Part shown: positions 2,017 to 6,883 of the stretch, piece by piece
Layout: each line of letters opens with the position of its first letter
How positions within the stretch are numbered: position 1 is the stretch's first letter
Virus record (IMG/VR): IMGVR_UViG_3300021254_000023
Strand: one strand, 5' to 3'
Length of the DNA: 64,000 bases
Source: an uncultured virus (IMG/VR IMGVR_UViG_3300021254_000023)
Taxonomy: Duplodnaviria; Heunggongvirae; Uroviricota; Caudoviricetes
Made by a program: the position numbers and the translations under genes
Notes under the pieces: model-generated
Told to the model about the DNA's origin: nothing
What the model saw: the letters and a program-made list of their open reading frames with translations, nothing else
The model's database searches: none

Positions 2017-4101
2017 ATGTACATCCGATTAGGTAAATCACAAATCTTTTACGAATCACCAGTAGTAGATGACTTCATGACTATTGCTCAAGTTGTCTCT
2101 GCTCCGATGTCGTTTGAAAGACCTGCTATAGTTAGTACAAAAACTCAACTAACAGCGCTCTTCGGAGAATCTTTCCCAGAGAAAGCTTTCTTAGAAGAAT
2201 TGATTGATTGGGGTGCAGTCCTATATCTTTATAGACCTATTAGTACAAAAGATGATCATAATCAAGAAGGCTATATAGACTTAGAAAAATGTAATACCCC
2301 ATCATACTACTTAGAAGAACCTCCTGCCGTCCCACAAGAAATGACCATCTATAAAATAAAAACCCTAGATGGATCGCTTTTAACAGATGAAGGAGAACCA
2401 TACGACAATTATATTTATTATGACGGAGAACTCGTCCTAGTTAACCAACTCCCTCAGATTGTAGGTGGATTTAGGACAGACTCCTTGAACAATCGAGACA
2501 CATTAACTCTTTATAAAAATCAGAGCAAGATCTCTTACTTAAACCCAATGTTTAAGAAGGATTATACTATCTTGCTCAACCCAGTAAATCGTACAAATTT
2601 ATTAGATAGCCTATCCACTATTAACTCAGAAGATATGGTGGATCTCATGGCAAAAATCAAAAAGGGATACAAAACTCTGGCTTTTAAAATAGAATCAGAG
2701 CCGATCGGTCCCTTACCAGACAACTCCTACATAGTAATTCAGACGAATACGAAAGACAGAGTCTTAATGTATGCTGGTGAAGAAGTACCTAACATACCTA
2801 CTCGCTACTATACTAAGACAGAGTCCGTTACATCGTGGGACGATATCCTTAACAAACTCAGACACTATGGATATTTCACTATCCCAGATAAGCCTGATAT
2901 GCTATATGCAAGTTTCCCCGTTCACACTGATTATTTCTATACTATTCCAGACCTATCTTTAGTTCCATCGTATCAAGGAACACACGACCTACTCTCAGAG
3001 ATAATGGAGGATAGTGACATATGTATGAACCTATGGTCTAAGACGATAGGAACAGGTGGAATAGATGGAGACATAACAGTAGCAATAGAACAGCTTGAAG
3101 ATGACCTTCTATATCGCATAACAGTCTCTAGATTTGATTATTCAGAAGTTTTTGAAGGCTATATCGACGAAAGAGAAGGCTATGAAAGATTAGATCGACA
3201 AATAGAGTATGGCTCTATTCTCCTTCATGCCAATTTTATACAAGGAGATACACTCCCAGTAGGAACCTGGACACTGTGTGGAGCCACAAAAGAAGACTAC
3301 ACACAAAGTATGTACCTAAAGTCTCTTGATGTTTTCAGAGACGAAATGGAGACAATATTTCCTGATTTCTTGCTGATCCCAGACATACATGTCTACGGAG
3401 ATGCAACGAAAGCAGATACGGATTACTATAGCGTTTATCTTGACCTCCTTGACTTCGCTAAAGAAACTGGTATTCAAGTACTTGTTCAGAATAATCAATT
3501 CGGTGATAATAAGATAGAAGATTACCTGTACAATTATACAGGAGATAAAGAAAATAGATTAATATATTTCTATCACGGAATGACTATTAATGGATGGGAA
3601 GAACCTGGGTATTATGTATTTTTACGAGGACTCTTTGGAGACTCATATTCACTATCAACGAACCTCGTATTTTATGATAGTCCTATGGGTGATAAGAATC
3701 CCTATACAGAAACGTTGGATAAACTGGAAAACAAGAAAAGTAATTACCTAGTGGATAATAATCAAGTATATTATTATAGCCAACTATTGAGTGGTAAGAA
3801 ACCAGAAACAACAATCTGGATGAGATTCGTCCTGGGAAAAATTCGGAGAGAACTCGAGAAAAACAGATGGTCCTACTTATCTGAACGTATGATAGGTACA
3901 GTTAAGAATAGGATCGATGGTATCCTTAGTAGAGTCCAGACAAGTTTCTCGATTATTAGGAGAATTCAAGTCAGTGAATTTGAGATTGACTACAGTAACT
4001 ATAAAATCAATCTTTCCATAGAAACTTGGATTAGTGATCTCATTGATAATCACATGAAACTGGACATAATGATTAACTACAAAAATTATAATAATTCTTA
4101 A
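2017..4101 (+). CDS. Putative contractile tail sheath protein
   Basis: 694 aa. N-terminal 'PAIVSTKTQLTALFG' and C-terminal 'I..EL...R....IDGIL...INLSIE' resemble sheath proteins. Directly precedes a ~200 aa tube-like gene. Confidence 0.65.
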   Translation: MYIRLGKSQIFYESPVVDDFMTIAQVVSAPMSFERPAIVSTKTQLTALFGESFPEKAFLEELIDWGAVLYLYRPISTKDDHNQEGYIDLEKCNTPSYYLEEPPAVPQEMTIYKIKTLDGSLLTDEGEPYDNYIYYDGELVLVNQLPQIVGGFRTDSLNNRDTLTLYKNQSKISYLNPMFKKDYTILLNPVNRTNLLDSLSTINSEDMVDLMAKIKKGYKTLAFKIESEPIGPLPDNSYIVIQTNTKDRVLMYAGEEVPNIPTRYYTKTESVTSWDDILNKLRHYGYFTIPDKPDMLYASFPVHTDYFYTIPDLSLVPSYQGTHDLLSEIMEDSDICMNLWSKTIGTGGIDGDITVAIEQLEDDLLYRITVSRFDYSEVFEGYIDEREGYERLDRQIEYGSILLHANFIQGDTLPVGTWTLCGATKEDYTQSMYLKSLDVFRDEMETIFPDFLLIPDIHVYGDATKADTDYYSVYLDLLDFAKETGIQVLVQNNQFGDNKIEDYLYNYTGDKENRLIYFYHGMTINGWEEPGYYVFLRGLFGDSYSLSTNLVFYDSPMGDKNPYTETLDKLENKKSNYLVDNNQVYYYSQLLSGKKPETTIWMRFVLGKIRRELEKNRWSYLSERMIGTVKNRIDGILSRVQTSFSIIRRIQVSEFEIDYSNYKINLSIETWISDLIDNHMKLDIMINYKNYNNS

Positions 4102-4103
4102 AT

Positions 4104-4876
4104 ATGGCAACAGTTGCTGAATTGGTACGTGGCGGAAATGATCTACGTGCTAAATTTATTGATTGGACAAATACCTACCACGATAATAACAAGGAGTTTC
4201 TTCGTGGTGATATGTGGGAGTTCAAATTCCTGAACGTTCCCAAGATTGTTTACTACCCTGGTGACGACATTATCAACGCCCGTCTGAACAGTGTAAACGT
4301 TGGTATTGATTACTCGGTAGGTGGTATTGAGAAGCGTATGCGTGGTGGTTGGAATATCTATCAGCGTACCTCTCAGAATACAAACGGTACTCTGACTCTG
4401 TCACTGGTTGATAAAGAAGATCAGGCTATTACCTACTTCATCGATGACTGGCGTCAGAAGATCGCTGACCGCGATACTCGCTACAGCTTCCGTAAGGATG
4501 ACCTGGTGGGCGACTGCCAGCTGTTCATCACGAACTCGTCTCGTATTGACGTTAGAATTTTAACATTCTACAACGTAATAATTCAGGACGGTCAAATCGA
4601 CGAGAACGGAGCCCTAGAGAGCGAGTCTGACCGTGCAGATATCACACTCACAATGCAGTTCGAACATGGCAAATTACCCAAGCTAGTGTTAAGTATAAAT
4701 TATTTTATACGAGAATCCTAATATATTGCTGGAAAATAAAGAAATAAATCAGCAACCTCTCACTTGAGAGGCCTAACGACTATGTTTAAGATGCCCTTGA
4801 AAAGGACAATGATATAGTCTAAACAAAGAAGAAATTCTCTGTAATATTGTACTCAAGAGAGTTTAAGAACCTGTAA
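4104..4876 (+). CDS. Putative tail tube protein, spliced: join(4104..4667,4850..4876), 196 aa ending ...MQFEH|YSREFKNL
   Basis: Tube-like motifs 'GTLTLSLVD', 'DWRQKI', 'ITLTMQFEH'. Codon usage (CGT, CTG, TTC, AAC) suggests high expression. Removing the intron joins the exons in frame. Confidence 0.75.
4668..4849 (+). mobile_element. Group I self-splicing intron, 182 nt, no internal ORF
   Basis: P1 AACAU/GUGUU with U.G at the 5' splice site; P2 GUAUAAA/UUUAUAC; P3 AUCCUAA/UUAAGAU; P4 UUGCUG/CAGCAA; P6 CCUCUC/GAGAGG; P7 GACUAU/AUAGUC; P8; P9 with GAAA loop; terminal G at 4849. Confidence 0.92.
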
Positions 4877-4912
4877 TTGTAAGTGTAGAAAATAAATTCT
4901 ACGTTTTCTCCT

Positions 4913-4955
4913 GGGATGGTGGGAAGAGGGCCCAAAACTTCTCACCCTCCCTTTT
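4913..4955 (+). terminator. Intrinsic terminator-like hairpin after the tail tube gene
   Basis: GGGATGGTGGGAAG/CTTCTCACCCTCCC followed by TTTT, enclosed by an outer stem TTCTACGTT/AACGTAGAA (4897-4964). Confidence 0.6.
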
Positions 4956-4994
4956 AACGTAGAAATCAATAATTTATAAAACTAAACTTAAATT

Positions 4995-6464
4995 ATGCGA
5001 GAGAAGGCGTGGAAACGTTACGACAATAAGAAAACACCTTTTACAGAAGAGGAGATAAAAGACATCATTGAAAAGAAATACCACGACTGTTTACCAAATA
5101 CGAAAAAATATATAGCAACTGGTTTAAAGACAATAGGGCCAAAATTTAAAGCTAATATTTGTATAATGGTAAAAGAAGATTTTATAAATATCTTCAACGA
5201 AGCTTTCAACAGTCTTGAAAAATACAAATTTGATTTCTCTAGAGTCCCAGATATTATCAAAAATACACACGAAAAGATTACTATAATATGCAAAGAGACA
5301 ATCTGTGGAGTAGAAATAGGAGAATTTACAGTAACCCGAAACTCTATAACAAAGGGAGAATTAAACCCTTTGTCAAAGTTTGAAAAATTTCTCTTAAAAG
5401 ATCTTCAAGAAAATGTGGAAACTAAGAATAAATACTTACCTCTTCTAGAAGAAAAATTCCAAGGTGTGTTTGATTTTTCAGAGTCTAAATTTGTAAGTAC
5501 AGAAATACCGCTTAAATATAAATGTATTTCGTGTGGTCAAACCTATTGGGATAACATAATAAATCTTCTATACTATAGAAAAGCTGAATGCAAAAACTGC
5601 GCTTCTATTCAAAGAGAAAAAGAATATATAGAAGAGGCTGGAAAAAAGTGGTTAGAAGAAGCCAAAACCCTACATTCAAATAACTGTGATTACACAAATG
5701 CTGTATATAGAGGTCACAATAAAACAGTAACTGGATTAAAGTGTAAACTATGTGAGAATACTTTCGAGCAAAAACCAGACAGCCATTTACAGTCTCCCTA
5801 TGGTTGTTGCTATGAGTGTGCTAAGAAATTAGCTGGTGCAAAAAGTAGATCAAACATAGAAAATGTTAAGGCTAGGGTTGAAGAAATTCATGGGGTAGGA
5901 ACATTCAATTGGGAAAAAGCTGTCTATGTAACTAATCAAACCCCAATAACTCTAATAGATGTTGCAACAGGTATAGAGTTTCAATCTACACCCAACAGAC
6001 TAATGTCAATCGGAGAAGGTTTGCCATTTACTCACAAACATTCACTTGGAGAAAGAAATACTGTCAAATGGCTTGAAGCCAATAAAATAGCCTATATTTC
6101 AGAGAAGTTTTACCCAACGACCGAAATACAGGGAAAAGGTGAAAGGGGCGTTAGAATAGACTTCGAAATAGAAATGAAAGATAAGAAAATTTGGATAGAA
6201 TGTAATGGTAAACAACACTATGAATACTGTCCGATTTTCTACAGATGGCTTGAATACTACTCTGAAGAAAGCAAAGAACTATACAGAAAACAATTAAGTA
6301 GAGACGCTAATGTAAGAAATTATAGTAAAGAACATGATATATTACTTGTCGAAATTCCTTACACTAGCTATGCATACGACAAAATAGATGATATATTAAC
6401 TAGGATCATCTTAAACAACGAATCTCCGGATTTTATTGAGATACCGGAAATTAAATACTGTTAA
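4995..6464 (+). CDS. Free-standing homing endonuclease-like protein (DUF723-like/Zn-finger repeats plus C-terminal Vsr/DUF559-like PD-(D/E)XK nuclease)
   Basis: Four '(F/C)(D/N)(F/Y/W)...' repeat units and several CxxC pairs. C-terminal 'SLGE...RIDFEI...IWIECNGKQHY...SRD'. More A-rich than its neighbours. Confidence 0.8.
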   Translation: MREKAWKRYDNKKTPFTEEEIKDIIEKKYHDCLPNTKKYIATGLKTIGPKFKANICIMVKEDFINIFNEAFNSLEKYKFDFSRVPDIIKNTHEKITIICKETICGVEIGEFTVTRNSITKGELNPLSKFEKFLLKDLQENVETKNKYLPLLEEKFQGVFDFSESKFVSTEIPLKYKCISCGQTYWDNIINLLYYRKAECKNCASIQREKEYIEEAGKKWLEEAKTLHSNNCDYTNAVYRGHNKTVTGLKCKLCENTFEQKPDSHLQSPYGCCYECAKKLAGAKSRSNIENVKARVEEIHGVGTFNWEKAVYVTNQTPITLIDVATGIEFQSTPNRLMSIGEGLPFTHKHSLGERNTVKWLEANKIAYISEKFYPTTEIQGKGERGVRIDFEIEMKDKKIWIECNGKQHYEYCPIFYRWLEYYSEESKELYRKQLSRDANVRNYSKEHDILLVEIPYTSYAYDKIDDILTRIILNNESPDFIEIPEIKYC

Positions 6465-6466
6465 TT

Positions 6467-6883
6467 ATGACACAATTTAAACAAAAAACATATTCCGAGG
6501 GTGACAAAACTGTCTTCCTCAATTTTATTGGAATATTAGCTGGCTTTATTGTACAGACTAAAAATCTTCATTGGGCTGCTCCTAAGAAAAACATTCATGT
6601 TTACTTGGACGAATTCCATGATATCCTCGGCGACTATCAAGACGCCCTGGCGGAGGGTTATATGGGTATTCTCGGTCAGATGGGCCCTAACGATGTTCCC
6701 TACAAAGAGTGCAGAGATGATAATGCCAACTCTTTCATTGAGAGCGTCCTAACTGCTACAAAGGAATTTTATGGACAAATTCCCGAAGGGAGTGAATTCA
6801 AGGGCATTACTGGAGAAACCGAGAGTTTCATACAGAACGTTAACAAGTATAATTACTTGTTCCATTTGTGCGATGCCATATGA
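6467..6883 (+). CDS. Ferritin-like/Dps-like protein (DUF5856-like)
   Basis: 'KNLHW...HVYLDEFHD...DALAEGYMG' matches the Dps-type H-W/H/D/E pattern. Confidence 0.7.
   Translation: MTQFKQKTYSEGDKTVFLNFIGILAGFIVQTKNLHWAAPKKNIHVYLDEFHDILGDYQDALAEGYMGILGQMGPNDVPYKECRDDNANSFIESVLTATKEFYGQIPEGSEFKGITGETESFIQNVNKYNYLFHLCDAI

Follow-up and report, generated by a model that had tools for sequence, protein, structure and literature searches.

The 64-kb window analysed here, the whole stretch of DNA taken from IMG/VR virus record IMGVR_UViG_3300021254_000023, carries a gene for a 196-aa tail-tube-fold protein that is split, between a His and a Tyr codon, by an insert of 182 nt and 31.9% GC at positions 4668–4849. 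We read this insert, at a probability of about 0.92, as a group I intron that is removed from the tube-gene RNA in gut samples; its host is a large (~38% GC) mammalian-gut phage. Three lines of evidence support this reading, namely the C-termini of intronless homologues, spliced contigs from two studies and a covarying group I core, and the same three support the claim, made in a preliminary description of this DNA, that the tube C-terminus depends on splicing.

We envision that the pre-mRNA would fold into a reduced group I core comprising P1, P2, P3, P4, P6, P7, P8 and P9, with a P3/P7 pseudoknot and an A-rich loop in place of P5, in which P1 would set U4667 opposite G4686. A two-step, guanosine-initiated transesterification, the mechanism expected from family membership, would then remove the intron after G4849, and joining of CAU to UAC would give the protein end FEH-YSREFKNL, the last β-strand of the tube. 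We infer that the 182-nt intron would be autocatalytic. If unspliced, the message would be translated as far as UAA 4719–4721 inside P3, giving a 205-aa protein with a foreign 17-aa tail, and it is in this form, at 205 aa and with a false tail, that the tube protein is mis-annotated.

Insert borders and the spliced junction

The called open reading frame (ORF; 4104–4721, 205 aa) departs from the conserved protein after ..QFEH, whose CAT ends at 4667, and runs on into the tail GKLPKLVLSINYFIRES until TAA 4719–4721 terminates the unspliced frame inside the insert. After G4849 the in-frame reading of 4850–4876 is YSREFKNL followed by a stop. T at 4667 and G at 4849 flank and close the insert as the group I rule expects, and on the plus strand of 4668–4849 there is no ORF of at least 30 aa that starts inside it. 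The homologue termini set the borders to a single base, as a shift of both by +1 or −1, read from the sequence, alters His-Tyr-Ser to H-D-S or Q-Y-S.

Exon 1 (188 aa) finds 374 homologues at E ≤ 0.001. Among the 120 best homologue clusters, 107 are 195–197 aa long and 114 carry the C-terminus [F/W]E[H/T][Y/M/H]x[R/L]..N[L/I/V]; the remaining six comprise the window's own cluster, P0008 (the type of locus L004, described below), P0058, P0071, P0080 and P0085. Four of the seven IMG/VR tube loci (L001, L002, L003 and L007) have uninterrupted ORFs of 195–196 aa and lack the insert. One of them, L001, encodes a protein 98% identical to the window's that ends FEHYSREFKNL with no insertion; both it and cluster P0007 terminate QFEHYSREFKNL. 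The preliminary description had pointed to the odd ORF tail GKLPKLVL and proposed an alignment to intronless homologues: the tail is confined to the window's own cluster among the 120 and is kept nowhere else. Its predicted end, FEH-YSREFKNL, agrees with the sequence of 4850–4876, with the L001 terminus and with the joined RNA contigs described next.

Fourteen runs recorded as RNA contain part of 4300–5000. We compared the contigs of four runs (X1, X3, X6 and X15) with 4200–5400, using the joint and not the uncovered parts. Two metatranscriptome contigs join 4667 to 4850: one, from run X3 (study P2), is 2674 nt long and has sides of 468 and 70 nt; the other, from run X6 (study P3), is 285 nt long, and its sides are 159 and 126 nt. 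Each skips exactly 182 nt with ends GG..TG and has no alternative placement ('both' = 0). The splice point that the preliminary description had placed between GAACAT and TACTCA is therefore found, to the base, in contigs of two studies as well as in the ends of intronless homologues. A contig of run X15, whose kind is not on record, shows the unspliced form over 4505–5178 with six variants; those in the intron, T4765C (L6 loop) and G4799A (L8 loop), both fall in hairpin loops. Coverage by run X1 is limited to 4200–4279 and has no bearing on the junction.

It is very improbable, in our judgement, that the insert is retained in RNA and that the joined contigs stem from RNA or DNA of a co-occurring intronless strain, the window's own tube then having the GKLPKLVL.. 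tail or being defective. Intronless alleles do exist (L001, L002, L003 and L007), the RNA evidence consists of assembled contigs rather than reads, and RNA libraries can contain DNA, which leaves formal room for an intronless DNA allele with identical exons. Yet both joined contigs, which come from separate studies and cover both flanks and nothing within the intron, match the window with 0 mismatches, including the 9 nt after the junction, where L001 differs at 6 (TAC TCA AGA in the window and at the RNA joint, TAT AGT CGT in L001). The X6 contig, moreover, reaches 4975, that is, 19 nt past 4956, where alignability to L001 ends because L001 lacks the endonuclease cassette considered below. 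Entering sequence absent from L001 with window-type exon-2 codons, this contig shows that the joined RNA comes from a window-type allele. The aberrant tail, present in one of 120 clusters, would also replace the last β-strand of the protein. Taken together, the RNA contigs give strong support, short of formal proof, for precise excision and exon ligation, as the intron reading requires.

The nature of the interrupted gene was approached through a structural model of the intact 196-aa L001 homologue (predicted local distance difference test score, pLDDT, 72). Foldseek returned 56 PDB matches at E ≤ 0.001 with TM-scores of 0.44–0.67, among them tube or tube-like chains of T4, AFP, PVC, P1 and phiKZ, and Hcp. 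The best match is the T4 tail complex (9mkb_AC, E 4.7e-7); AFP and PVC tubes, the P1 inner tube and the T4 tube (5w5f_A, E 3e-5) are also found. As modelled, the gene product is a contractile-tail tube protein; it may instead be a paralogue of the tube (an initiator or terminator, for example). Exon 2 corresponds to the last β-strand of the predicted tube fold (strand 188–193 in the L001 model).

The group I core and the small-intron family

The positions of the structural elements are collected in Table 1. The segment 4660–4856 folds to −41.5 kcal/mol (z = −3.51; 0 of 200 shuffles equally stable), and the minimum free energy (MFE) fold contains P1, P2, P4, P6, P7, P8 and P9; P3 is missing from it since, as the pseudoknot partner, it cannot be displayed by MFE folding. 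In P1 the MFE fold pairs U4667 with A4685; the U4667·G4686 wobble is equally possible and is the register read by group I convention. The core elements P, Q, R and S quoted in the preliminary description are all present in the order given there, and a pattern joining P, Q and R has a single match in the 64 kb of the window, against 0 of 100 shuffles with any. The reduction of P5 to an A-rich loop and the single P3 mismatch were likewise correctly described: at most two A-U pairs are possible for P5 in 4733–4748, and P3 has one C·A mismatch (C4718/A4789), one non-standard pair being marked in the alignment of covariance model R1 (below). In P7, the pair G4778–C4819 adjoins the bulged C4777, with A4776–U4820 beyond it; G4778–C4819, the G-C pair beside the bulge, is a putative guanosine-binding site.

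Table 1. Coordinates of the split tail-tube gene, its intron and the downstream insertion in the window.
Feature	Positions	Strand	Details
Exon 1 of tail-tube-fold gene	4104–4667	+	188 codons, ends ..QFEH; last base U4667
Group I intron (probable)	4668–4849	+	182 nt, ORF-less, 31.9% GC, final G4849
P1	4663–4690	+	AACAU 4663–4667 + GGC 4668–4670 with GCU 4682–4684 + guide GUGUU 4686–4690; A4685 bulged
P2 hairpin	4693–4710	+	GUAUAAA/UUUAUAC, loop UUAU; in MFE and centroid fold
P3 5′ strand	4716–4721	+	UCCUAA, includes in-frame stop UAA 4719–4721
Core element P	4725–4735	+	ATTGCTGGAAA
P4	4726–4755	+	UUGCUGG 4726–4732/UCAGCAA 4749–4755; A-rich 16-nt loop 4733–4748 where P5 is expected
Core element Q	4747–4755	+	AATCAGCAA
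P6 hairpin	4756–4771	+	CCUCUC/GAGAGG, loop ACUU
Core element R	4772–4782	+	CCTAACGACTA
P7 5′ strand	4776–4783	+	GACUAU 4778–4783, preceded by A4776 and bulged C4777
P3 3′ strand	4786–4791	+	UUAAGA, pseudoknot with P7
P8 hairpin	4792–4808	+	CCUU 4795–4798/AAGG 4802–4805, loop GAA; outer G4793–C4807 and U4792–A4808 across C·A mismatch
Core element S	4811–4820	+	GATATAGTCT
P7 3′ strand	4814–4819	+	AUAGUC, pairs with 4778–4783
P9 hairpin	4824–4841	+	CAAAGAA/UUCUCUG, one A·C mismatch, GAAA tetraloop 4831–4834
Exon 2	4850–4876	+	YSREFKNL + stop; last β-strand of (predicted) tube fold
Insertion relative to L001	4957–6462	+	carries free-standing homing-endonuclease-like ORF 4995–6464, 489 aa

Relatives of the core are numerous. 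The P-Q-R pattern is found in 93 stretches of IMG/VR, and the R-S pattern with a short spacer in at least 145, many in 200–400-kb contigs with several per contig. We collected 136 distinct R-S matches, of which 79 could be parsed by anchors and 32 were chosen by eye for diversity to form an alignment, A1. In A1, 93.8% of cells pair, against 74.0% after shuffling (0 of 500 shuffles reach the value) and 28–45% with the partner slid, and two-sided changes occur in five of the six P3 pairs and all six P6 pairs. A covariance model built from A1 (R1) has 171 matches at E ≤ 1e-5 in 100 sources totalling 311,795 bases; it gives the window intron 102.7 bits, a score that includes the window as a member of its seed, and the 182-nt intron is its sole match at E ≤ 1 in the window. 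The 150 best R1 matches (alignment A3, 92 distinct rows) have 94.5% of cells paired and a covariation score of 0.715, compared with 0.172 in shuffles (0 of 500 reach), with two-sided changes in 13 of 18 pairs, including all six in each of P3 and P6; slid controls across A1 and A3 pair in 28–48% of cells. P4 is paired in 100% of cells and contains one compensatory switch from G-C to A-U (9/32 rows in A1, 14/92 in A3). All 79 parsed relatives have a hairpin of at least 4 bp at the P2 position and another after the S element, and their P5 stems, read from the parsed alignment, range from 0 to about 5 bp; being variable and sometimes absent, P5 behaves as dispensable in this intron family.

The same core also occurs in introns that Rfam recognises. 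Larger phage introns with the P/Q/R core and extra helices between the P3 3′ strand and P8 score 60–104 bits with RF00028 in all eight loci tested, compared with 0 of 12 tested small-type loci reaching the cut-off. The Q-R-S core with a short spacer is further present in 31 stretches of bacterial genome contigs (L251–L281), mostly metagenome-assembled genomes of Patescibacteria; nine of ten examined loci score 57–79 bits with RF00028, and six of the ten also match 23S rRNA. These sequence similarities hint at a common ancestry of the phage small introns and the rRNA introns of the Candidate Phyla Radiation. Two contigs with the small-intron core, L277 (370,971 bp) and L268 (208,376 bp), are binned as 'Mycoplasmatota bacterium' and 'Gemella sp.', and may be huge-phage contigs binned with bacteria.

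Two further introns lie in the tube gene itself. Locus L004 (77% protein identity) has a homologous 203-nt intron (L004:1974–2176) inserted 6 nt further 3′, between FEHYS and REFNNL, and 74% identical to the window intron over 129 nt. Its P2 and P6 have changed sequences and kept hairpins, P8 and P9 have two extra complementary pairs each, and the GAAA loop of P9 is the same. In L005/L006 (71%), an intron of 156 nt at 3499–3654 occupies a different site, between ..DAPLD and ENG..; it follows a U (position −1), ends in G and forms a P1 hairpin of 6 bp, and with 15 nt from R to S it has no room for P8. Four homologue clusters have odd or cut C-termini (P0058 ..FEHYSRETLTIK; P0071 ..FEHYSR; P0080 ..TISLTLNKLRG; P0085 ..FEHYSR), which may mark further intron sites in the tube gene, or contig ends.

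Several observations weigh against the group I assignment. Rfam has no match in the window at gathering level. RF00028, searched against 551 nt, reaches 21.8 bits (E 0.0024) over 4696–4841, below its cut-off of 50 bits; in that alignment the S element and P9 are matched well and about 100 model positions are skipped, the model being built for a long P8 and for some 100 nt of P5/P6, neither of which the 182-nt intron has. No stable P5 helix is possible, P3, P8 and P9 have one mismatch each, and a P10, looked for in the sequence, amounts to at most 2 bp. Because A3 is an alignment to the model, its pair counts are biased in favour of the structure, and P7, being fixed by the search patterns, is invariant and gives no covariation information. 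Finally, a P8-specific metagenome scan for close variants found only a 100%-identical copy (L247) and L004, so that support for the window's own helices comes from the family at large and from comparing the intron with that of L004.

These points bear on a second alternative, which we consider hardly credible: that the insert is removed by a route other than group I splicing, either as another kind of intervening sequence or through translational bypassing as in T4 gene 60. The sub-threshold RF00028 score and the missing P5 would fit it, and group I catalysis is itself a prediction. Bypassing, however, keeps the RNA intact, yet the RNA contigs lack the 182 nt. The hallmarks of the class are present as well, in U at −1, the terminal G, the P1 guide pairing, the covarying P3/P4/P6 core and the P3/P7 pseudoknot; the Q-R-S core is shared with introns at 57–104 bits with RF00028, and no other Rfam family scores better than E 0.18 on the window. 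The search with group I covariance models that the preliminary description had proposed thus gave a divided answer, the window itself lying below the 50-bit cut-off and relatives with the common core scoring 57–104 bits, and the group I identity it had claimed is upheld by a covarying core common to introns that pass the cut-off. Since the curated Rfam threshold misses the small introns, the same mis-annotation as in the tube gene would be expected in every gene they interrupt.

The preliminary description had also called the element a near-minimal natural ribozyme. The small size, 182 nt, stands, but the element is one of a large family and has a P8-less relative of 156 nt in the same gene of L005/L006, which is smaller than the window's intron if it is spliced. 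The R-S spacer lengths of the 79 parsed small introns fall into two modes, 14–17 nt in 31 and 24–36 nt in 48, and in the former 31 there is no room for P8. Small introns of about 150–200 nt are seen in 200–400-kb gut phage contigs (L008–L245), frequently with many to a genome: a segment of about 15 kb in IMGVR 3300045988_180488 has more than 12. Tentatively, and with the odds somewhat against it, the small introns could be a distinct and very reduced group I subclass that lacks P5 and, in about 40% of parsed members, P8 too, and is smaller than the textbook self-splicing ribozymes; it would represent either a minimal natural catalytic core or one whose folding is partly handed to a phage or host protein. 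The 182-nt intron with its A-rich loop for P5, together with the 156-nt P8-less relative, offers test cases for a minimal group I scaffold or a protein helper.

Two side observations concern the folding of this region. A fold that includes exon 2 favours, over P9, a 9-bp helix between AAAUUCUCU (in the region of the P9 3′ strand) and AGAGAGUUU (exon 2), at −8.1 kcal/mol in the interval 4832–4864; this helix might serve as a second pairing option at the 3′ splice site, or simply arise by chance from the Arg-Glu-Phe codons. A terminator-like match on the minus strand (4773..4754) was rejected, as it is the P6 hairpin in reverse.

The downstream endonuclease and possible intron mobility

Beginning 145 nt downstream of the intron, the window has a homing-endonuclease-like ORF that lies in a second insertion relative to L001 (Table 1). 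PHROG matches of ORF 4995–6464 are to HNH, homing and intron-encoded endonucleases; there is no Pfam match at E ≤ 0.01, and a PDB sequence search gave only an unrelated match at E 0.77. The ORF contains a Vsr/I-Bth0305I-like (EDxHD-fold) nuclease domain, and the N-terminal two thirds of the 489-aa protein carry repeated Cys pairs, relatives having precomputed PF05265 and PF14311. Sequence identity to I-Bth0305I, of the EDxHD family, and to Vsr is 14–20%, and the window's endonuclease is free-standing, not intron-encoded.

Whether the two insertions belong together can be judged from their distribution. L004, which has the homologous C-terminal tube intron, also has, in the corresponding intergenic stretch, a 495-aa endonuclease homologue (L004:2372–3859, 29% identity); neither intron nor endonuclease homologue is present in L001, L002 or L007. 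The intron and the endonuclease cassette are separated by just 107 bp common to L001. Exon-2 bases 4850–4858 differ from L001:3565–3573 at six of nine positions, all synonymous (Tyr, Ser, Arg), compared with three differences in the next 98 bases and 29 of 564 in exon 1; the six changes could be due to the site recognised by the endonuclease, be a trace of co-conversion or meet a need of splicing. Collaborative homing would account for such a pairing: alleles without the intron would be cut by the endonuclease close to the insertion site, and a genome carrying the intron would be shielded by it. We put mobility of the intron through collaboration with the downstream Vsr/EDxHD-fold endonuclease at a little below an even chance.

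An even chance is what we give to the intron being real and the two elements independent passengers, the endonuclease targeting another nearby site and the intron spreading otherwise or not at all. Such independence is favoured by L003, whose tube gene is intronless, with a 43-codon ORF (L003:3743–3871), 40% identical to the endonuclease N-terminus, lying between it and the DUF5856 gene; this ORF looks from its sequence like what is left of an endonuclease gene that has decayed in the same place, a remnant without an intron. In L005/L006 the tube intron has no homologue of the window's endonuclease in the 2.2–2.8 kb examined downstream. The family to which the endonuclease belongs is very large (at least 598 IMG/VR stretches), and of 80 loci around its distant members (found with P0133) none has an intron of the R1 type within 2.5 kb; the window's own endonuclease protein, used as query, gave 3 weak loci only. 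The count for co-occurrence of intron and endonuclease is also low, at 2 loci versus 3. What speaks for a linked history is the pairing in both the window and L004, the joint absence from L001, L002 and L007, the short common sequence between the two insertions and the cluster of synonymous changes at the start of exon 2.

A precedent for collaborative homing is known from cyanophage S-PM2, in which a psbA intron is accompanied by the free-standing endonuclease F-CphI; the intronless allele is cut at the insertion site and the intron protects (PMC6083498 and PMC3984707, in the parts available). As with S-PM2 psbA and F-CphI, the intron and endonuclease of the window are jointly absent from a close relative. 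The nuclease families differ, with a Vsr/EDxHD-like fold in the window and an Endo VII motif in F-CphI, and site cleavage and protection by the intron are established for F-CphI, whereas the window pair is known from sequence. The pair, a near-identical empty site in L001 and the L004 pair shifted by 6 bp would constitute a natural system for collaborative homing outside cyanophages.

Known introns and the tail module

The Azoarcus pre-tRNA-Ile intron (IC3), at about 205 nt, is the textbook small group I ribozyme, and its P5 is the receptor of the L9 tetraloop. Like the window intron, the Azoarcus intron has a short P1, caps P9 with a GAAA tetraloop and keeps to a compact P1–P9 core that lacks large peripheral domains. 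They differ in that the window intron, a putative ribozyme, has 182 nt, no real P5 and 32% GC, and resides in a protein-coding late gene. A literature search found no relevant report on smallest or minimal group I introns. Phage tail-tube genes are a known location: orf142 of Staphylococcus phage Twort holds three introns, of the larger IA2 type and with a solved structure. The introns of orf142 have been known for a long time, and the gene encodes the tail tube (PMC11878797, in the part available). In Twort, as in the window, it is thus a phage tail-tube gene that group I introns interrupt. Cluster J mycobacteriophages, too, have introns in capsid and tail genes (PMC3706429, in the part available).

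The closest parallel in number and size comes from Jug (jumbo gut) phages. According to the available part of a recent study (PMC12880540, Sci Adv 2026), 136 of 139 Jug phage genomes contain group I introns, 2513 in all, whose length averages about 206 nt; metatranscriptome mapping supported 37 of 76 introns, and stand-alone homing endonuclease genes were abundant. In the main text, as far as it was available, the split genes named are terL, nrdD and DNA polymerase, and 'tail tube' occurs 0 times. Jug phages resemble the window as gut huge phages whose genes are split by many small group I introns, and Jug beta has a 196-aa homologue of the window's tube protein. IMGVR 3300045988_180488, the contig with more than 12 small-intron matches, is a Jug alpha in the available supplement of that study, and a look-up in its sheets ST1–ST4 placed L001 in the huge-phage catalogue (ST2) and not in the Jug genome sheet (ST3). 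The GC content of the window is 37.7%, compared with about 30% for two Jug alpha genomes, and the tail module is common to both. The window intron has the anatomy of ordinary splicing introns. Both features, small group I introns in huge phages of the gut and an intron position inside a tail-tube gene, have been published before, and we regard the present case as a well-supported new example and no new kind of element.

Among GenBank phages (50,697 records), tblastn with exon 1 and blastn with the intron region (4600–4990) were both empty. Upstream, an ORF of 694 aa at the candidate sheath position has no Pfam match at E ≤ 0.01 and no PHROG match. The next gene after the endonuclease cassette (6467–6883) is a homologue of DUF5856 and of the 'starvation-inducible transcriptional regulator' (Dps-like by PHROG name), and this DUF5856 gene is kept beside the tube gene in L001–L004.

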